Positions 1-9,355 of a DNA stretch of 63,384 nucleotides are shown here, piece by piece. The notes beneath the pieces were generated by a model. It did not search any database, had not been told where the DNA came from, and worked only from the letters and a program-made list of their open reading frames with translations. The DNA comes from Blastocatellia bacterium (GTDB taxonomy: Bacteria > Acidobacteriota > Blastocatellia > UBA7656): NCBI GenBank assembly GCA_036505875.1, contig DASXSR010000288.1, positions 1 through 63,384 of the forward strand, written 5' to 3'. A program made the translations under genes and the position numbers. Positions within the stretch are counted from its first letter, which is position 1; each line of letters starts with the position of its first letter.

Positions 1-329
1 TCGACTGCGAGAGTGCCGATCACAACTCGCGAAACACCAAGCTCGATCACTGCTTTGACATCTTCGATGCTTCGAAGACCGCCGCCGAACTGCACTGGAA
101 CACCGATCGTCTGAATGATTCTGGTGAGAGCCTGTCGATTGCGTGAGTTGGGGTCCGAAAACGCGCCATCGAGATCAACTACGTGAAGCATCTGCGCTCC
201 CGCTTGTTCAAACCTCTTTGCAACGGCAACCGGTTCGCTGTCGTAGATGGTCGCTGCGTCCTTGCGCCCTTGCGTAAGCCGAACGCATTGGCCGTTGCGG
301 AGATCGATTGCGGGGATGATCAACATCAT
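1..329 (-). CDS. hisA: HisA (ProFAR isomerase). The N-terminal part is present; the C-terminus lies beyond the window edge.
   Basis: Reverse-strand translation from the ATG at 329 reads [30 protein letters not shown]..., a canonical HisA N-terminus. Its start makes an ATGA overlap with the hisIE stop (326-328). It is absent from the ORF track because it runs off the window. Confidence 0.85.
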
Positions 330-967
330 TCGCCGCCTCGTTCGGATCTGCGAACCGTCAACTCGTCGCGTACTTCCTCCAGCGTCACTCCGCGTTCAAC
401 CAGAACAACGATCAGATGATAGAGAAGATCAGAAGTTTCCTTAACCAGCGCGCTCCGGTCCTCGTTCTTTGCGGCGATGATCGTCTCGCTCGACTCCTCA
501 CCGAGTTTCTTGAGAATCTTGTCCAGCCCCTGATCAAACAAATAAGTTGTGTAAGAACCTGCGGGTCTCTGCTGCTTTCGCGATTCGACGATGGCATACA
601 AGCTATCGAGCACCTCACCAAGGTTGGAGTCCGGAAGGGAATTCTCTTCAATCTCACGATCAAAGCATGAGGTCTTGCCGGTGTGACAAGCCGGACCTTC
701 AGGCTCAACCGTCAACAGAATAGTGTCGCTATCGCAGTCCAGACGCGCTTCAATCACCCGCTGCGTGTTCCCTGATGTCTCGCCCTTGTGCCACAAGCTC
801 GAACGAGATCGAGACCAGAACCAGGTTTCTTGTGTCTCAAGCGTTCGGCGCAGGCTCTCGGCATTCATGTAAGCGACCATCAGCACCTGCCGCGTCCGAG
901 CGTCCTGCACAATTGCCGGAACAAGTCCGCGCTCGTCGAATTTCACGTCTTCAACTTTGATATTCAT
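326..967 (-). CDS. hisI: Bifunctional phosphoribosyl-AMP cyclohydrolase / phosphoribosyl-ATP pyrophosphatase (HisIE)
   Basis: 213-aa ORF. The HisI region reads LVPAIVQD...[23 protein letters not shown]...GPACHTG. The C-terminal HisE-like helical part reads [17 protein letters not shown]. It lies within the his operon. Confidence 0.92.
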
Positions 968-1731
968 CTCACAACGACCCCACGCCCTCGCAGATAGTCC
1001 TTCACCTCGGTGATCTTGTATTCCCCGTAATGAAACAACGACGCCGCCAGCACCGCGCTTGCTCCGCCTTCGGTCAGCGCTTCGTAGAAGTGTTCTAGCT
1101 TTCCGGCGCCGCCCGACGCGATGACAGGTATGCGCACCGCCGAGCTGATAGCGCGCGTAAGCTCCAGATCGTATCCGTCTCGCGTGCCGTCGCGGTCCAT
1201 GCTGGTCAACAGGATCTCGCCCGCGCCAAGCCGTTCAGCCTCGCTCGCCCACTCGACCGCATCAAGCCTGGTGTTCCGACGCCCTCCGTGTGTGAAGACT
1301 TCCCAGCCCTTGCTGGCGCGAGCCGGTTCTCTTCGGCGGGCGTCGATCGCCAATACAATACACTGACTCCCAAATGTTTCCGCGCCTTTGCTAATCAATA
1401 CCGGTCGGTTTACTGCGGCTGTGTTCACGGAGACTTTGTCAGCGCCCGCTCGCAAGACCGCGCGAATGTCTTCGATCGAGCCGAGGCCGCCGCCGACCGT
1501 TAAGGGTATGAAGACCTCATCGGCTACGCGGCGCACGAGATCGATAATGATCGCGCGGTTGTCGGATGACGCGGTGATGTCGAGGAACGTCAACTCATCC
1601 GCACCTTCCGCGTCGTAAGCGCGCGCTTGCTCGACCGGATCGCCCGCATCGCTGAGCGAGACGAAGCGGACTCCCTTGACAACCCGACCGCGGTCGATGT
1701 CCAAACATGGAATGATTCGTTTGGCTAACAT
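964..1731 (-). CDS. hisF: Imidazole glycerol phosphate synthase, cyclase subunit HisF
   Basis: 255-aa ORF starting [18 protein letters not shown], with later [13 protein letters not shown] and [17 protein letters not shown]. It overlaps hisIE by 4 nt. Confidence 0.95.
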
Positions 1732-1766
1732 GAAAAATACATTGCGCCACGAAGGCTCGAAGACGC

Positions 1767-2414
1767 CTAAGTGCCTTTATGCAGCTTCGTGTCTTGGTGA
1801 CTTTGTGGCGGAAACTCGGCGAAATTGCTAAGAAGCGTTAGCCCTGCCGCCTGGCTCTTCTCGGGATGAAACTGCACCCCGCAGATGTTCTCGTGCGCGA
1901 CCACTGAGACGTAATCTTTGCCGTAACCGGTCTCGCCGATCACATCTTCGGCCTCCGCGGCTTCGCAATAATAAGAATGAACGAAGTAGAAGAACGCGCG
2001 GTCCTCGATTCCACTCAGAAGCGGATGCGGCGATCTCACATGCACCTGATTCCAGCCGACTTGCGGCACGAGCAGATCATCATCGAACCTGCGAACTCTT
2101 CCACGCAGTAGTCCTAAGCCCTTGCTCGGGCCAAACTCATCGGATGACTCGAAAAGCATTTGCATTCCCACGCAGATTCCGAGGATCGGCGTGCCCTCTT
2201 CTGCTCGCTCGAGCACAAGCCGGTCGAAGCCGCGCGAAGAGAGGGCTTCCATGCAAGCTCGAAACGCGCCGACTCCCGGCAAGACCAACCGCTCGGCTTC
2301 GCGCAAGATTCGCTCGTCGGAGCTGATCGACGCGTTGTGCCCAGTGGCGAGGAATGCCTTCTCAACCGAGCGCAGGTTGCCAACTCCATAATCGATGATT
2401 GCGATGCGTGGCAT
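1767..2414 (-). CDS. hisH: Imidazole glycerol phosphate synthase, glutamine amidotransferase subunit HisH
   Basis: 215-aa ORF with [28 protein letters not shown] and FHPEKS, the class I GATase triad context. Confidence 0.93.
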
Positions 2415-2417
2415 TTC

Positions 2418-3023
2418 TTACAGCTCTCCCTTTGTGCTCAGCACTCCCTGGATCCTCGGGTCGCGTTCGACAGCGTGCCGCATCGCGCGAGCCGTCGCTT
2501 TGAAGGTTGACTCGAGGATGTGATGAGTGTTCCGTCCGCGGATTAGATCGATGTGGAGATTGCAGCGCAGGCTTGTCGCAAACGAACGCCAGAAGTGCTC
2601 GGCCATCTCGACCGAAAAGTTTCCGATCTTCTGCCGTTTGGTCCTCACCTGGTACGCCAGGTAGAAGCGCCCGGACAAATCGACCGCGGCTCCGCACAGC
2701 GCCTCATCCATCGGAATGATCGCCGAGCCGTAGCGATTGACGCCGGACTTGTCTCCCAGGGCTTCCGAGAAAGCCTGGCCGAGACATATCGCTATGTCTT
2801 CGACCGAGTGATGATCGTCCACGTCCAGATCGCCGCGACATTTCAATTCGAGATCGAACAGACCGTGCTTCGCGAACAACTCGAGCATGTGATTGAGAAA
2901 CGGCATGCCGGTTTCGACCAGCGCGGCGCCCGTTCCATCGAGGCGTAGCGAAACGGTGACGTCGGTCTCTTTTGTCTTTCGTCGGCATTCCGCCGATCGT
3001 GTCCGTTTTGTTTTCATAACCAT
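2418..3023 (-). CDS. hisB: Imidazoleglycerol-phosphate dehydratase HisB (monofunctional)
   Basis: 201-aa ORF with RKTKETDV.V.L.LDG, DDHH.VED and HHI.ES.FKA motifs. There is no N-terminal phosphatase domain. Confidence 0.93.
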   Translation of the reverse strand: MVMKTKRTRSAECRRKTKETDVTVSLRLDGTGAALVETGMPFLNHMLELFAKHGLFDLELKCRGDLDVDDHHSVEDIAICLGQAFSEALGDKSGVNRYGSAIIPMDEALCGAAVDLSGRFYLAYQVRTKRQKIGNFSVEMAEHFWRSFATSLRCNLHIDLIRGRNTHHILESTFKATARAMRHAVERDPRIQGVLSTKGEL

Positions 3024-4120
3024 TTCACTTCTACGGAGTGACTCGCAGAACCCTCAAAGATTTCTCGCAGCTCCCAGACCAACAGCTCATTCTCCTCGGG
3101 TGTCCCCACGCCGACGCGAAAGTAGTCCTCAAGCATCGGGTAGCCGCTCACATCGCGAATCAGAATATCTCGTTTTAGAAGCTCATCGAAAACGAGTCTC
3201 GGCTTGATCGAAGACCGCACCAGGATGAAGTTTGCCCGCGTCGGCACCGGGGCGAGGCCGGGAATTGTGCGCAGCTGAGAATAAAGCCGATCGCGTTGGC
3301 CATTTATCCGCTCGACCAGCGGCTCAAGCTTTGAGCCATACATTTCCAGCGCCACCTCAGCCGCGGTCTGCGAGAAACGATTCAGGTTGTAAGGCAACAA
3401 CGCTTTCGAGATCTCTTGCGCCAGCGCCGGCGACGTTAAGAGATATCCCACGCGCAACGCGGCCATCGCCATTGCCTTTGAAAACGTACGCAGCACCACT
3501 AGATTCTGATGATGCTTCAGGAGCGTGACCGCGGTTTCGCCCGCGAACTCGTGATAAGCTTCATCCACGACAACCAGACCATCCGACACCCCAAGAATCG
3601 ATGCCAGGTCGCGCTCGTCCATCGCGCAGCCGGTCGGATTGTTGGGTGAACAGATGATGGTCACATCCGGCCTGAGCGATTGGATCGCATCCGTCAGCGC
3701 TCTCACGTCGTAGTTCAATTCTGCGGTCAGAGGCACGCTGATCACTTCACCGCCAAGCACGGTTGCAACCTGTCGATACAGAGTGAAAGTCGGCTCGCTT
3801 ATCAAAACGCGCTTTCCTTCCGTCACGATAACCATCAGCACTGCTTGAATCAGTTCGTTGGACCCGTTCCCGACGAGAATTCCGTCCGAAGGCCAGCCGC
3901 TGAACTCACTCAGCCGTTCGATCAGACTCGCAGGCACGAATTCCGGATAACGTGACCATTCGCGCTCTTCAATGCGTCTGAGTGTCTCCGCCTTGATTTC
4001 GGCGGGAATGTCCCACGGGTTCTCGTTCTGGTTGAGCTTGACGCGGGCGGGCTCGAAGCGCAGCGAGTAGGCTCGCAGTTTGCGCACCTGAGATTTTATG
4101 TTGTCCAGCGCATCCCGCAT
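3014..4120 (-). CDS. hisC: Histidinol-phosphate aminotransferase HisC
   Basis: 368-aa ORF with LNQNENP, SPNNPTG and TFSKA (PLP lysine context). It lies within the his operon. Confidence 0.92.
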   Translation of the reverse strand: MRDALDNIKSQVRKLRAYSLRFEPARVKLNQNENPWDIPAEIKAETLRRIEEREWSRYPEFVPASLIERLSEFSGWPSDGILVGNGSNELIQAVLMVIVTEGKRVLISEPTFTLYRQVATVLGGEVISVPLTAELNYDVRALTDAIQSLRPDVTIICSPNNPTGCAMDERDLASILGVSDGLVVVDEAYHEFAGETAVTLLKHHQNLVVLRTFSKAMAMAALRVGYLLTSPALAQEISKALLPYNLNRFSQTAAEVALEMYGSKLEPLVERINGQRDRLYSQLRTIPGLAPVPTRANFILVRSSIKPRLVFDELLKRDILIRDVSGYPMLEDYFRVGVGTPEENELLVWELREIFEGSASHSVEVKWL

Positions 4121-4122
4121 TA

Positions 4123-5421
4123 TCAGTCCTCCTCCAGCCGAATCAGAGCCGAGTGCGCGTGCGCGTCCAAACCTTCGGCGTTTGCCAATGCCGCGATCAA
4201 CGGGGCCGTTCGATCAAGCTCGGCAGCCGTGAACTTCAAGATGCTCGTCCGCTTCAGAAAATCATTCACGCTCAGCGCCGATGAGAATCGCGCGGCGCCT
4301 GCGGTTGGCAAGACGTGATTTGGTCCGGCCAGGTAATCGCCGGCTGCAACCGGAGTGTGTGAACCAAAGAAGATCGCGCCTGCGTTGTAGATTCGCGAGG
4401 CGACCGCCTCTTCGTCGCGCGCGATTATCTCCAGATGCTCAGGGGCAAGGTCGCTCGCCAGTGCGCACGCCTCTTCCATTTGATCAACGACGATGATCGC
4501 TCCGTAGTTTTCAAGCGATGTGGTGAAAACATCGCTGCGTTGCAGCTTGCGAGCCTGCTTCGCAACCTCGACGGCGACTTCACGAGCAAGCGTTTCACTA
4601 GTAGTAATCAAAATTGCCGAAGCGTCGTCGCCGTGCTCAGCTTGTGCAAGCAGATCACTAGCTACAAATGACGCGCGAGCGTTGTCGTCCGCGACGACAA
4701 CGACTTCGCTGGGCCCGGCGATCGAATCAATGCCCACCACGCCAAATACCAGCTTCTTTGCCGCCGCAACGTAGCGGTTTCCTGGTCCAGTGATCTTATC
4801 TACGCGAGGAACAGTCTCCGTGCCGAACGCTAACGCGGCGATTGCTTGCGCCCCGCCAATGGCGTAGGCCTCAGTGACGCCGAGTTCGACAACGGCCGCT
4901 GCCACCGCTGGACTCTCTTGAAGCGTCTGCGGAGGGGTAGCTATCACAATGCGGTCGACGCCCGCGACTTGTGCAGGCACGACGTTCATCACAACCGACG
5001 ACGGATAGCTCGCGAGCCCCCCAGGCACATACAACCCCGCCCGTTGGACGGGCGTCAGTCGCTGGCCCAACCGCACGCCGCTTTCGGTTTCGACTTCCCA
5101 CGAATCCTGACGCTCTGATTCGTGAAAAGCCCGCACCCTGCGAATTGCCTCGCGCAGGGCCTCCAGCACCTGGCCATCGACTCGCGCTGCCGAACGTTGC
5201 AATGTCTCCTCGCTCACGCGAAGCTCAGCGGCGCTCATTACACAACCGTCAAACCGCGCGCTGTATTCGATGAGCGCGGCGTCACCCCGGTCTCGCACGT
5301 CCTGGATGATTGAGCCGACCCGGTTCATGAGATCAGCATCCAGCGCAACGCTTCGTTCGCGGATGCGCGCCAGCTTTGCACCCAGTCGCTCGGTTTCTCG
5401 GCTGTGAATGATCTCAATCAT
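4123..5421 (-). CDS. hisD: Histidinol dehydrogenase HisD
   Basis: 432-aa ORF with YVPGG.A.YPSSV.M, GPGN.YV..AK and AQAEHD-like AQAEHGDD motifs. Confidence 0.94.
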   Translation of the reverse strand: MIEIIHSRETERLGAKLARIRERSVALDADLMNRVGSIIQDVRDRGDAALIEYSARFDGCVMSAAELRVSEETLQRSAARVDGQVLEALREAIRRVRAFHESERQDSWEVETESGVRLGQRLTPVQRAGLYVPGGLASYPSSVVMNVVPAQVAGVDRIVIATPPQTLQESPAVAAAVVELGVTEAYAIGGAQAIAALAFGTETVPRVDKITGPGNRYVAAAKKLVFGVVGIDSIAGPSEVVVVADDNARASFVASDLLAQAEHGDDASAILITTSETLAREVAVEVAKQARKLQRSDVFTTSLENYGAIIVVDQMEEACALASDLAPEHLEIIARDEEAVASRIYNAGAIFFGSHTPVAAGDYLAGPNHVLPTAGAARFSSALSVNDFLKRTSILKFTAAELDRTAPLIAALANAEGLDAHAHSALIRLEED

Positions 5422-5440
5422 ATGACTTTTCTTTCAGCGG

Positions 5441-5533
5441 AGTTTCGTAGTACCGCATTTATGCGGAAGTTTGTTGGCGTAATATTCTCGTCTCAACCCT
5501 ACGAACTTCCGCATAAATGCGGTACTACGAACC
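5441..5533. repeat. Long inverted repeat with a nested palindrome, lying between hisG and hisD
   Basis: Arms TTCGTAGTACCGCATTTATGCGGAAGTT (5443-5470) and AACTTCCGCATAAATGCGGTACTACGAA (about 5503-5530) are perfectly complementary over 28 bp, separated by a ~30-nt loop. Each arm carries its own palindrome, CCGCAT-TT-ATGCGG. The right arm overlaps the hisG stop codon. Confidence 0.9.
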
Positions 5534-6145
5534 TTTCAGAGAATTGATCAGCTCGCCGATAGCAGCCGCCTTCAGTTGGTAGCTTGCGCGGTTGACGATC
5601 AGACGCGCGGTTGATTCGGTGATAACTTCGAGCATCGCGAGTCCATTCTCACTGAGGGTCCTGCCGGTTTCCACCAGGTCAACGATGCAGTCGGCGAGTC
5701 CCAGAAGCGGCGCAAGCTCGACTGATCCGGACAGCTCGATCAGCTCGACCGGGATACCGCGAGCGCCAAAATGCTCGGCGGCGATTCGCGGATACTTTGT
5801 AGCTACCCTAACCACGCCCAGCCCATCCAGTGAGATGCCCGCCCGCGCGGCTACCGCGACGCGACAGCGGCCTATCTCGAGGGCGAGCGGCTGCAATACG
5901 TCGGCCTCGCTTTCGAGCAGCACGTCACGGCCTACTATTCCGCAATCTGCAATCCCATGCTCTACATACACCGGCACGTCCGACGGTTTAACGGGGATGA
6001 ACCGGCAACAGCCCGCCTCGTCTTCGAGAATCAGACGCCGCGACGAGAGCGCATCGCTCGACACTCGAAGCCCTGCGTGGGCAAGCAGCTCGAACGCTTC
6101 AGCCTGCAATCTTCCCTTAGCGATTGCGATCGTGAGGTCTGTCAA
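5525..6145 (-). CDS. hisG: ATP phosphoribosyltransferase, short form HisG. A TTG start at 6145 is preferred; the ORF is open up to 6238.
   Basis: The ORF contains LTIAIAKGRL, IPVKPSDVPVYVE.G.AD.GIVG.D and VATKYP. GAGGAG lies about 8 nt upstream of the TTG at 6145. The short length and the adjacent hisZ fit the HisG(S)/HisZ system. Confidence 0.85.
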   Translation of the reverse strand: MTDLTIAIAKGRLQAEAFELLAHAGLRVSSDALSSRRLILEDEAGCCRFIPVKPSDVPVYVEHGIADCGIVGRDVLLESEADVLQPLALEIGRCRVAVAARAGISLDGLGVVRVATKYPRIAAEHFGARGIPVELIELSGSVELAPLLGLADCIVDLVETGRTLSENGLAMLEVITESTARLIVNRASYQLKAAAIGELINSLKGS

Positions 6146-6228
6146 CTTTTCATCTCCTCGTCCGGATTGGCCGCCCCTGTCAGCATTGGAACTCGCTCCA
6201 TAATTGAACGGCGGGCACAGGGGCCGCC

Positions 6229-7344
6229 CTACAGGCACACTCGAATCCGCGCATCCTCAGCGCGGCGATTCATTGCCTCTTGAAAGAGCAGCGCAGGGTC
6301 GTCGTTCGAGAGTCGGGACGCTTCCCGTTGCGGCGCGCGAGTCGAGCCTAGGTCTCGTTTGCGCGCCACCAGCAAATCCGCCAGCGCTTCAAGATCAAGT
6401 ACAAAGCCTATCGCCGGCTCAGCCTTGCCGAACTTTGCAGTCAGGGCATCATACCGACCGCCGCTGCCGATCCTCGCGCCGGCCCCGGCAACATAGACTT
6501 TGAAAGTCAGACCGGTGTAATAGTCGAGCCTGGAAACGTCTCCAAGATCGATCTCAAAATGATCGGCGAGACCAAGCGACTCTATAACGCGCCACAAGCT
6601 TTCAAGATGATCCAAACCGTTGACCGAGCGCGGATTTGTAATAACTCTACGAGCTTTGTCCAGCGTGTCGCGTTTTCCGGCGAGTTGCGTCAACCGCACG
6701 AAGGCGCGGCGGTCACCGGCGGAAGCGTGAGGAGTCAGAAAGCGTTCGAGTTCCACGGCGTCGCGAGCATCGATCAGCTGCCGCATTTCATCTCGAGCTG
6801 ACGCATCGAGTGCGAGATTCGCCGCAACGCCGTTAAAGATCTCGACGTCGTTGAGCGTGATCACAAAGTCTTGGCCGAGACCCAGACGATCGAGGATCTC
6901 CGAAGCAATTACCAATAACTCGACGTCTGCCGCGAGCGAGTTTGCGCCGGTAAGCTCGCAGCCGATCTGTGTCAACTCTCTACGCCATTCCGCGCGCGTT
7001 CGCGGCTGTTGGCGGAACACCGACGCAGCGTAGCATAGACGCAAGGGCCTTTCGCTGGACGCAAACAGCGTTGCCGCCGCGCGCGCCACTGCCGAGGTGA
7101 CGTCGGGCCTCAAAGCCAGGAGCCGCCCGTCTGTGTCGGTGAACCTGAACGCGTGATGAGATTCCGAGTGGCCCATCGCTCGATCAAACAACGAATAGTA
7201 GTCCACTGTCGGCGTCGCGATCTCTTCGTAGGACCAGCCGTCAAGCACCGACATCGCGGTGTCTTCGATGCTGCGTCTCAGCCGTGCTTCGCGCCCGAAG
7301 TAATAACGAAGGCCGCCGGGAATTTGAGAGAGTGCCTCGGACAT
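6229..7344 (-). CDS. hisZ: ATP phosphoribosyltransferase regulatory subunit HisZ (HisRS paralogue). The ATG at 7344 is preferred; an alternative TTG lies at 7362.
   Basis: The ORF shows class II aaRS-like motifs (P.G.RYYF, LR.D.T..VAR, FR.E.PQ-like, GGRYD.L) but has no anticodon-binding domain. It is the first gene of the his operon. Confidence 0.85.
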   Translation of the reverse strand: MSEALSQIPGGLRYYFGREARLRRSIEDTAMSVLDGWSYEEIATPTVDYYSLFDRAMGHSESHHAFRFTDTDGRLLALRPDVTSAVARAAATLFASSERPLRLCYAASVFRQQPRTRAEWRRELTQIGCELTGANSLAADVELLVIASEILDRLGLGQDFVITLNDVEIFNGVAANLALDASARDEMRQLIDARDAVELERFLTPHASAGDRRAFVRLTQLAGKRDTLDKARRVITNPRSVNGLDHLESLWRVIESLGLADHFEIDLGDVSRLDYYTGLTFKVYVAGAGARIGSGGRYDALTAKFGKAEPAIGFVLDLEALADLLVARKRDLGSTRAPQREASRLSNDDPALLFQEAMNRRAEDARIRVCL

Positions 7345-7360
7345 AAAACTCCGATCTGTC

Positions 7361-7404
7361 AAAACGAAAACCCGCTGTCTGCGTTCGCGCTGGACAGCGG
7401 GTTT
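7361..7404 (-). terminator. Intrinsic terminator (attenuator) between the His leader ORF and hisZ
   Basis: The minus-strand RNA reads AAACCCGCUGUC-(13-nt loop)-GACAGCGGGUUU followed by UCGUUUUG. The 12-bp stem uses 7393-7404 and 7368-7379. It ends about 16 nt before the hisZ ATG. Confidence 0.75.
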
Positions 7405-7428
7405 CTGGTTTCCAGTTGTGACTTTGCT

Positions 7429-7530
7429 TTACTCTTCGCGCATGCGCATCACAACCGCCAACACGCTGTCAGGATGCCAATGGTGATTGGCATGATGGTG
7501 ATGGGTATGATGGCTCTTGTTCATTGTCAT
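7429..7530 (-). CDS. His-rich leader peptide (33 aa) of the his operon
   Basis: The minus-strand ORF reads ATG ACA ATG AAC AAG AGC CAT CAT ACC CAT CAC CAT CAT GCC AAT CAC CAT TGG CAT ... TAA, which translates to MTMNKSHHTHHHHANHHWHPDSVLAVVMRMREE. Nine of 13 consecutive codons are His. It sits immediately upstream of the terminator and hisZ and is too short for the ORF track. Confidence 0.7.
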   Translation of the reverse strand: MTMNKSHHTHHHHANHHWHPDSVLAVVMRMREE

Positions 7531-7614: not shown

Positions 7615-8280
7615 TCAACCAGCGAATATCTGAGCGGGAGTGATTGTCAGGAACTCGAGCCGGGGAGCGGGCAGCTTGCGACGTCCTTTGTACTGCGCTC
7701 GGCGAGTGTATTTCCCATCCTCCGGCGCAGTGTGTACCCAGACGCTTTGGTCACGCCGGTCTACCACCCAGTAAGCGGGGATCTCCAGAGTAGCATAAAT
7801 GTCGGGCTTGTCGATCAAATCGCGATCAATCGCGCTGCGGCTGGAGACCGAGAGCACTTCGACCACCAGCAACGCCGGCGGACGGCGATTGGTCCTCTTG
7901 TAGTCACGGTAACAGACCGAGGCATCGGGGCAAACGTGGTCGGGACCCTCGACTCCGGCTTCAACCCACATTATTTTGAGTTCTTTTGGCACGGCGTACC
8001 ACGCATTGGAACCCACAACGCGACAACCGAGTTTCTCAATCTCGCTCACCTGCTTCGCTAGCAGATGCTCGATATTTATTGTTTGCTCGATATGAACATC
8101 ATCAGGTGGCGGGCTCATAATGATCTCTCCATTGATTAGCTCCAACTGATCATCTGGGAATAGATTCACCATTTCCTCAAACTCTTCAAGCGTGAAGCGG
8201 CGAACCAGTGGCCCGGCAAACAGATCCCTCTCGCGTGATGTTTCTTTCGGCCGAGCAGCCTCTTTCGGCAGTGCTGCCAT
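7615..8280 (-). CDS. Uma2-family (DUF820) putative restriction-like endonuclease
   Basis: 221-aa ORF. Residues ELINGEIIMSPPP, CPDASVC, LVVEVLS.S and the Y.. .IPAYWVVD pattern are typical of the Uma2 family. Confidence 0.7.
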   Translation of the reverse strand: MAALPKEAARPKETSRERDLFAGPLVRRFTLEEFEEMVNLFPDDQLELINGEIIMSPPPDDVHIEQTINIEHLLAKQVSEIEKLGCRVVGSNAWYAVPKELKIMWVEAGVEGPDHVCPDASVCYRDYKRTNRRPPALLVVEVLSVSSRSAIDRDLIDKPDIYATLEIPAYWVVDRRDQSVWVHTAPEDGKYTRRAQYKGRRKLPAPRLEFLTITPAQIFAG

Positions 8281-8386: not shown

Positions 8387-9355
8387 TCACGAGCGCCGCG
8401 ATGGACCGCCAACTGACGTTTCGTAGATGACACGCGAAATGTCAGCAATCAACTTATGCGCTCGTTTCTCGTCTTCAATCCCGCGAGTCAGAATAACAAG
8501 CACGTAAGGTTTCCGGCCTTTCAAGTAAACAATCGCCGCGTCGTGATTGATCCTGGTGATCGACCCTGTCTTGTGTGATACCCGCGCGTCTTTCGGCAAA
8601 CCCGCGGGGATCCCTTCGTTGAATTTTTGATCGAGCATGATTTTGATCATCTCATCGGACGCCTTGGCCGAGACCGCGCGTCGCTCCGCTATTAGTTGCA
8701 TTATGATCATCAGGTCCCGCGCAGTAGTCGTGTTGTTCAAGCCTTTCTGGAAAGCCTTTCCGTCTTCAACGCCACGCAGCACGTGCATGTTGTCTGCCCC
8801 TATCGTGCGCATCAGCTCCATCACGCGTTCAGGCGTAACTCGCTCCATCAACAAGTTTGTCGCCAGATTGCTGCTGACGGTTATCATCAGCCGAACCAGC
8901 TCGCGAATTGTCTGGGGCTGCCCGATCCGTTTGTAGAGGGACTGCTCGGAATCGCTTTCGCCAGAAAGGGAATAATGACTACCGTCGGCGAGGCTCGCGA
9001 AATCGTTCTTGATCGGGATGCGTTGATCGAATTTGAGCTTGCGCGCCGCAGCCTGACGATAGACTTCCATCATCACAGGCACTTTCATAGTACTTGCCGC
9101 GTGAAAGCTGACGTCGGGATTGATCAATAATTCGCGACCGGTATCGAGGTCGTGATAAGCGACGGCGACCGTTTCGGCGCCGCTCGACCGGATTAGCTCA
9201 TCGATTAGCTTTTCTAGATCGGGGGACGCGCAAACAGCGACTGAACACGAGCCTTGACAAGAGAAGCTCAACGTCAGGATTCCAAGGACGAGAAGCCGAA
9301 TCGGGGGAAGAAGCCTCCTGCGTAAAGATTGCCGGAGCGCGTAGTGCGTTCGCAT
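8387..9355 (-). CDS. Secreted class A beta-lactamase-like serine hydrolase
   Basis: 322-aa ORF with an N-terminal signal/TM segment, an S-x-x-K motif (ASTMKV), SSN (SxN) and HKTGS (KTG). Confidence 0.75.
   Translation of the reverse strand: MRTHYALRQSLRRRLLPPIRLLVLGILTLSFSCQGSCSVAVCASPDLEKLIDELIRSSGAETVAVAYHDLDTGRELLINPDVSFHAASTMKVPVMMEVYRQAAARKLKFDQRIPIKNDFASLADGSHYSLSGESDSEQSLYKRIGQPQTIRELVRLMITVSSNLATNLLMERVTPERVMELMRTIGADNMHVLRGVEDGKAFQKGLNNTTTARDLMIIMQLIAERRAVSAKASDEMIKIMLDQKFNEGIPAGLPKDARVSHKTGSITRINHDAAIVYLKGRKPYVLVILTRGIEDEKRAHKLIADISRVIYETSVGGPSRRS

Follow-up and report, generated by a model that had tools for sequence, protein, structure and literature searches.

On the minus strand of a 63,384-nucleotide (nt) contig from a Blastocatellia bacterium (DASXSR010000288.1 of assembly GCA_036505875.1; this whole stretch is called the window), the histidine biosynthesis operon hisZ-G-D-C-B-H-F-IE (326-7344) is preceded by a leader region made up of a promoter, a short open reading frame (ORF) rich in histidine (His) codons, two hairpins and an intrinsic terminator. 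The operon begins with hisZ and hisG, whose coding regions share 10 nt (6229-6238). The sole His_biosynth gene in the operon (964-1731) is hisF (TIGR00735, 383 bits), so that hisA is outside the operon and must lie elsewhere. As judged from comparative sequence data, the leader is well supported as a lineage-specific His leader-peptide attenuator.

The leader ORF carries nine His codons, at positions 7, 8, 10-13, 16, 17 and 19. Both its coordinates and its translation, first reported in an earlier note made from the letters of the window, were verified. It is the sole site in a six-frame search of the window with at least six His codons per 13 stop-free codons; the maximum there is nine, while the maxima in 100 shuffles of the window range from 4 to 6 per 13 codons. 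The note had called this ORF unannotated, and that description extends to its relatives: on four public contigs of relatives the gene callers left the leader ORF uncalled, and a collection of 15 billion proteins contains only one of eight leader peptides, as an entry without a name. No family in Pfam or NCBIfam matches the leader peptide at E-values up to 10.

Folding of the 221-nt leader gives three hairpins, namely A, B and the terminator, with a z-score of -2.9 against dinucleotide shuffles (Table 1). Hairpin A is the alternative stem that had been proposed within the His run, and hairpin B is the stem that had been proposed to span the stop codon, which sits in its loop. The terminator stem announced between the leader stop and hisZ was verified with 13 pairs rather than 12, together with a U-tract; it begins 23-24 nt after the leader stop, and 16 nt separate the end of the U-tract from the hisZ ATG. 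The heptamer GACAGCG (7470-7464) had been described as a copy of the core of the terminator 3' arm. The copy is exact, and the heptamer opens a strand, S2, that pairs with the terminator 5' arm in an outer antiterminator helix of about -11 to -12 kcal/mol, inside which hairpin B nests. The antiterminator and terminator pairings exclude each other, the point that the note had proposed to check by folding.

Table 1. Positions of the leader and operon features in the window, followed by the extra DNA between terminator and hisZ in six relatives (listed by locus handle)
Feature	Position	Strand	Details
Promoter -35 hexamer	7576-7571	minus	TTGACA; from sequence and family conservation
Promoter -10 hexamer	7552-7547	minus	TAAAAA (family consensus TATAAA/G); 18-nt spacer
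Leader ORF	7530-7429	minus	ATG at 7530, 33 codons, TAA at 7431-7429; translation MTMNKSHHTHHHHANHHWHPDSVLAVVMRMREE
His-codon run ('region 1', putative sensing segment)	7512-7474	minus	Codons 7-19, 9 His
Hairpin A	7493-7474	minus	AUGCCAAU-CACC-AUUGGCAU; inside the His run; -8.6 kcal/mol
Antiterminator 5' strand, S2 ('region 2', outer)	7470-7460	minus	GACAGCG-U-GUU; pairs with 7403-7393 of the terminator 5' arm
Hairpin B 5' arm, B5 ('region 2', inner)	7457-7448	minus	CGGUUGUGAU; -11.6 kcal/mol with the 3' arm
Hairpin B 3' arm, B3 ('region 3', inner)	7422-7413	minus	GUCACAACUG; begins 6 nt past the stop codon
Terminator 5' arm ('region 3', outer)	7405-7393	minus	GAAACCCGCUGUC; 13 pairs
Terminator 3' arm ('region 4')	7379-7367	minus	GACAGCGGGUUUU; preceded by a 13-nt loop, followed by CGUUUUG
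Intrinsic terminator including U-tract	7405-7361	minus	G+C-rich 13-bp stem; -20.9 kcal/mol
hisZ with ribosome-binding site	6229-7352	minus	ATG at 7344, GGAG at 7352-7349; TIGR00443, 279 bits against a cutoff of 271.65
hisG, hisD, hisC, hisB, hisH, hisF, hisIE	326-6238	minus	Rest of the putatively regulated operon
Extra DNA, L014	2241-2500		
Extra DNA, L015	2368-2500		
Extra DNA, L019	2236-2500		
Extra DNA, L026	2284-2500		
Extra DNA, L030	1979-2500		
Extra DNA, L034	2266-2500		

Relatives were collected by a HisZ scan taking one genome per species, which gave 80 loci at 56-88% identity, all in assemblies of Blastocatellia, Pyrinomonadaceae or Acidobacteriota. Four close relatives were added from a HisZ protein search (best 120 matches, all at least 64% identical), and the full set spans 56-98% HisZ identity. 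A His-rich short ORF followed by a terminator lies upstream of hisZ in 68 of the 71 relatives with enough upstream DNA, or 69 of 72 loci with the window included; in these 68 the unit comprises promoter, His ORF, hairpin A, antiterminator strand, hairpin B and terminator. Conservation in relatives, which the earlier note had set as a check, is thus present and comes with the covariation described below. A G+C-rich hairpin with a conserved U-tract follows the leader ORF in 69/69 loci. A covariance model of hairpin A, the antiterminator and hairpin B, built from 12 sequences and named R1, finds a single match per locus, always immediately upstream of hisZ, and in the window exactly one match (7361-7497, 114 bits), even with filters off.

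The His-rich ORF is absent from three relatives with enough upstream DNA (L037, L058 and L072). L072 (2375-2489) has a terminator-like hairpin, CCCGCCGCCG...CGGCGGCGGG, with a U-rich tail about 30 nt before hisZ and after the upstream gene. Its R1 match is weak (18.7 bits), and this lineage has apparently lost the leader.

The same conservation disposes of chance. A Uma2 gene (7615-8280) lies upstream on the same strand, and the His-rich ORF could have been an accident beside the terminator of that gene. This explanation is refuted: the unit travels with hisZ whatever gene lies upstream, a conserved promoter stands between the Uma2 gene and the leader ORF, and the density of His codons is far beyond that of the shuffles. 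The promoter has the form TTGACA-N17/18-TATAAN just upstream of the leader ORF in 69/69 loci, the window included. Its -35 hexamer is TTGACA in 66 and TTGACT in 3 of these loci, and it is conserved in the relatives of the window at 78-98%. A consensus scan for promoters and terminators missed both real elements in the window, because a terminator loop of 13 nt and a -10 hexamer ending in A fall outside its rules; both were recovered by comparison.

Covariation shows that the alternative pairings are themselves maintained. In a 64-sequence alignment from the covariance model, which was fitted to the antiterminator structure and may be biased towards it, the antiterminator-state structure is 84.7% paired and 22 of its 27 pairs have double-sided changes. 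None of 500 shuffles matched these values, and sliding the partners by 1-3 columns lowers pairing to 27-49%. The helix between S2 and the terminator 5' arm is conserved at 90% of cells (90.1% paired), with compensatory double changes at 7 of its 10 pairs, and the terminator helix is 94.2% paired. Hairpin A covaries strongly, one of its pairs occurring as CG in 40 sequences, GC in 20 and UA in 2. RNAalifold, run on a first MAFFT alignment, recovered hairpin A and the terminator only; it missed hairpin B because one clade was misaligned there by 3 nt, which the covariance-model alignment solved.

A signal independent of any alignment comes from a three-way change (G>A, C>U, G>A) in the strand after the His run, the terminator 5' arm and the terminator 3' arm. 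These segments read GACAGCG/CGCUGUC/GACAGCG in the window lineage and GGCAGCG/CGCUGCC/GGCRGCG in all other relatives. The window and its 98%, 88% and 86% relatives carry the change, and the 78% relative has the ancestral form. One base pair common to the antiterminator and the terminator has thus been replaced in all three strands, keeping both structures paired.

The pattern of substitutions further indicates that selection acts on the RNA and on the His codons, not on the peptide. Peptides rich in His bind Ni, Zn or Co, and two parts of this one, ANHHWH and GSALAVV, look conserved, as would be expected of a functional small His-rich peptide, for instance a metal-binding one, encoded ahead of an ordinary terminator. 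That explanation is nevertheless highly improbable, since the two stretches coincide with RNA helices, namely hairpin A and S2/B5, and are conserved at third codon positions, which are invariant in S2 and B5. Hairpin A covaries through amino-acid changes (A to G; W to C/R/G) that keep both the pairing and the His codons, and five loci read S2/B5 in another frame, ending at a UGA inside GUUGUGA, with the RNA kept. Finally, the ORF is always coupled to hisZ and its peptide matches no protein family.

The His codons and the helices are arranged in register with the reading frame. Family leaders have 5-11 His codons (median 8) ahead of the antiterminator strand, the first of them a median of 48 nt upstream of S2 (63 loci). 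S2 begins 3 nt past the last His codon in 46 of the 63 loci, the stop codon is within the loop of hairpin B in 56 of them, and the commonest distance from stop to B3 is 6 nt, inside the footprint of a terminating ribosome. Codon choice in the leaders also stands apart from that of the structural genes. CAU makes up 63% of the His codons in the 69 leader ORFs (353 CAU, 203 CAC), and CAC makes up 61% in the his genes of the window (27 CAC, 17 CAU). The CAU preference of the leaders may be a pairing constraint (CAU with AUG) or may favour a codon that is decoded more slowly.

This arrangement bears on the possibility that the attenuator is independent of translation, a protein, a ligand or tRNA-His itself (in the manner of a T-box) choosing between antiterminator and terminator, with the His codons secondary. 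The structures of hairpin A, the antiterminator and the terminator are conserved and covary in their own right, and the leader ORF is without a Shine-Dalgarno motif in 64 of the 69 loci, both of which such a mechanism would accommodate. It is improbable all the same. The ATG, the 5-11 His codons and an in-frame stop in the loop of hairpin B are kept in the 69 loci while the rest of the peptide varies, and a frame-dependent geometry, with S2 at +3 nt and the stop 6 nt before B3, would be pointless without a ribosome. Nor does the leader have a specifier loop or other T-box-like architecture. An Rfam scan of the leader region with E-values up to 10 gave no T-box and otherwise only two chance matches of snoRNA type, and the T-box model had no match in the window (E up to 10) or in three relatives (E up to 1).

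Taken together, these observations make it very probable that the leader is a ribosome-mediated (leader-peptide) transcription attenuator that sets expression of the his operon by the supply of charged tRNA-His. Transcription would start from the sigma-70-type promoter (7576-7547), and the first feature of the transcript would be the 33-codon ORF with its nine His codons. When histidine is scarce, a ribosome would stall at the early or middle His codons (7-17) and leave S2 and B5 (7470-7448) free to pair with B3 and the terminator 5' arm (7422-7393). This antiterminator would withhold the 5' arm from the terminator, and RNA polymerase would read into hisZ-G-D-C-B-H-F-IE. When histidine is plentiful, the ribosome would pass S2 and B5 and reach the stop codon in the loop of hairpin B, blocking the antiterminator; the 13-bp terminator would then form and transcription would end at its U-tract, 16 nt short of hisZ. 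The predicted parts of this scheme are ribosome stalling, translation of the ORF, kinetic competition between the structures, pausing at hairpin A and the response to histidine.

A model of ribosome occupancy, in which 28 nt are blocked around the A-site and the nascent RNA is folded up to the terminator loop, gives the same logic. For the window, the predicted probability of the antiterminator, P(antiterminator), is 0.98 as long as the A-site is no further than codon 16, 0.79 at codon 17 and 0 from codon 18 to codon 27; with a ribosome at the stop codon it is 0.19. In the family as a whole, most loci have values of about 0.9-1.0 when the ribosome stalls at an early His codon; a ribosome at the stop codon gives values under 0.5 in 51 of the 63, and the median for free RNA is 0.002. 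The low value for free RNA is attributed to a long protector stem that is predicted in most relatives. It joins the early His codons (CAYCAC...) to GUGAUG/GGUUGUG and S2, carries hairpin A at its tip and has a family median duplex energy of -20.4 kcal/mol. In the absence of a ribosome, this stem would favour termination in most relatives. Hairpin A is therein the apex of the protector stem and a candidate pause hairpin. As modelled, the design of the family is the classical 1:2 / 2:3 / 3:4 one, of which the window has a version with a weak 1:2 pairing.

Several results weigh against this account, in addition to the possible bias of the pair counts. The protector of the window is only -14.6 kcal/mol, no better than shuffles (z = -0.35), and for the nascent RNA of the window, when untranslated, the antiterminator is the predicted fold (P = 0.97). 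Read-through would come from earlier stalls only, since a ribosome halted at codon 19, the last of the His codons, would cover S2. With the ribosome at codons 28-33, the model lets S2 pair around the ribosome, ignoring steric hindrance. A search for upstream pairing partners of the terminator 5' arm in individual sequences did no better than shuffled controls and was not used; this G+C-rich arm also pairs in shuffled G-rich sequence, in 5-60% of trials, and the test therefore does not discriminate. Only 5 of the 69 loci, the window not among them, have a Shine-Dalgarno-like motif ahead of the leader ATG. Finally, the terminator is the preferred equilibrium structure of the full-length leader in every ribosome state (P of about 0.9-0.96), and the switch must consequently be kinetic, as in classical systems.

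This constant preference for the hairpin, together with the uncharacterised state of intrinsic termination in Acidobacteriota, would also suit a different role for the leader ORF, in which stalling exposes or covers RNA and controls hisZ through translation or Rho-dependent polarity instead of an intrinsic terminator. We regard this as quite improbable. A conserved U-tract follows the hairpin at every one of the 69 loci, and the ribosome-binding site of hisZ is outside the hairpin, 9 nt further downstream. Several relatives have 110-520 nt of unrelated repeat DNA between the hairpin and hisZ with the element intact, so that the hisZ start cannot be directly occluded.

Within the attenuator reading, the start of translation and the weak protector of the window invite a tentative and rather doubtful refinement. 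The -10 hexamer of the window ends 16 nt ahead of the leader ATG, which predicts a 5' untranslated region (UTR) of about 9 nt, and the window is one of 16 of the 69 loci where the hexamer ends 9-16 nt before the ATG and the predicted 5' UTR is about 2-9 nt. The leader ORF might thus be translated from an almost leaderless mRNA devoid of a Shine-Dalgarno motif, and the window lineage might use 'translation-licensed termination' in place of classical super-attenuation. If so, an untranslated leader in the window would default to read-through, the protector pairing would have decayed in this lineage, and the terminator would need a ribosome actively passing S2 and B5.

Several further observations concern the surroundings of the leader and its relatives. 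Immediately upstream of the his promoter, on the same strand of the window, the Uma2-family gene encodes a putative endonuclease and is preceded by a class-A-type beta-lactamase family gene (8387-9355); Uma2 and beta-lactamase genes likewise precede hisZ in L081-L083, the 86-98% relatives. In L081 (about 1345-1400), the 98% relative, His codons 13 and 19 of the window are lost, by changes of CAU to CUU and CAU to CGG. These changes keep hairpin A through G-U pairs, so that RNA structure is kept at the cost of sensing codons. The extra DNA between terminator and hisZ occurs in one clade (L014, L015, L019, L026, L030, L034, L006 and L011). It contains palindromic repeats resembling small mobile repeat elements, such as TTTTCCATATGTCATTTGTCATTTCTCATTT with its inverse and GACAGGCATTCCTGCCTGTCC. 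A long near-perfect hairpin in L041 (5571-5702) has sub-threshold matches to models of plant and animal microRNA precursors; its identity as a microRNA was rejected, as it is certainly a palindromic repeat. L004 (CAZJQQ010000031.1), deposited as 'uncultured Clostridia bacterium', has a HisZ of 68% identity and a leader typical of the Blastocatellia set, and this bin is probably mislabelled or contaminated.

The regulation of amino-acid synthesis is almost unstudied in Acidobacteriota, an abundant soil phylum that is hard to culture. On the evidence of sequence comparison, histidine synthesis in this phylum apparently gains its first well-supported cis-regulatory RNA with this leader. To a specialist an attenuator of a well-known kind is unsurprising; what is new in this understudied phylum is the regulatory RNA family, conserved over 69 Blastocatellia loci, whose alignment and covariance model could annotate metagenomes and seed an Rfam entry. 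An attenuator of this type works only if the ribosome trails RNA polymerase closely, and its conservation is therefore indirect evidence of transcription-translation coupling in the phylum. The leader is also an example of dual constraint, where His codons, RNA helices and reading frame are kept together and the RNA wins over the peptide.

The closest point of comparison is enterobacterial hisL (RF00514 His_leader; Pfam His_leader), whose attenuation architecture the earlier note had recognised here. The likeness holds at the level of logic. Both have a promoter-proximal His-rich short ORF before the his operon and alternative hairpins ending in an intrinsic terminator, with stalling predicted to lead to the antiterminator and full translation to the terminator, and in both the His codons lie in the first strand of a stem resembling a pause hairpin. 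Conservation and covariation add support to this part of the claim. Homology to hisL is not detectable in either direction: RF00514 has no match in the window (E up to 10) or in three relatives (E up to 1), with E. coli hisL as a control at 131.6 bits, and R1 finds no match on E. coli hisL. The two also differ in detail. The 33 codons of the present ORF compare with 16 for hisL, which is annotated at 51 nt, and the nine His codons found here are interspersed among 13 codons, in contrast to the seven in a row of hisL. In addition, the first gene is hisZ and not hisG, an extra covarying hairpin lies inside the His run, and the ORF lacks a Shine-Dalgarno motif and is predicted to follow a 5' UTR of about 9 nt.

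Leaders before hisZ-led operons have a precedent in another phylum. His leader attenuators in this position were predicted in the B. cereus group, in Clostridioides difficile and other Peptostreptococcaceae and in Erysipelotrichales (PMC2965389; PMC9413887). These are known from comparative genomics only, and each group was described by its authors as an independent acquisition (PMC2965389; PMC9413887). They share with the present leader a His-rich peptide and a terminator/antiterminator before hisZ, as far as a comparison by description goes, and are reported to carry runs of 3-5 consecutive His codons (PMC9413887). Gamma-proteobacteria and Firmicutes are the only groups named in a published list of leaders that depend on His-tRNA (PMC4833913), and full-text literature searches found no His leader attenuator for Acidobacteria, in agreement with the earlier statement that this one is undescribed for its lineage. 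The Blastocatellia leader is apparently another independent origin of His leader-peptide attenuation, beside that of gamma-proteobacteria and the three Firmicutes groups, the latter compared by description.

Histidine T-box riboswitches of Firmicutes and Actinobacteria have the same input, tRNA-His charging, and the same output, a terminator/antiterminator choice before his genes. Unlike the leader described here, a T-box binds tRNA directly and has no ORF. In its layout the leader is closer to that of the E. coli trp operon, with which it shares four segments, the roles of protector, antiterminator and terminator, and a stop codon placed so that the terminating ribosome blocks the antiterminator. 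It differs from the trp leader in the amino acid, in its two-part antiterminator, formed by S2 with the terminator 5' arm and the nested hairpin B, and in the weak protector of the window. Both systems have a terminator of markedly greater stability than the antiterminator; the values are -20.9 and about -12 kcal/mol here, and those of trp are similar.

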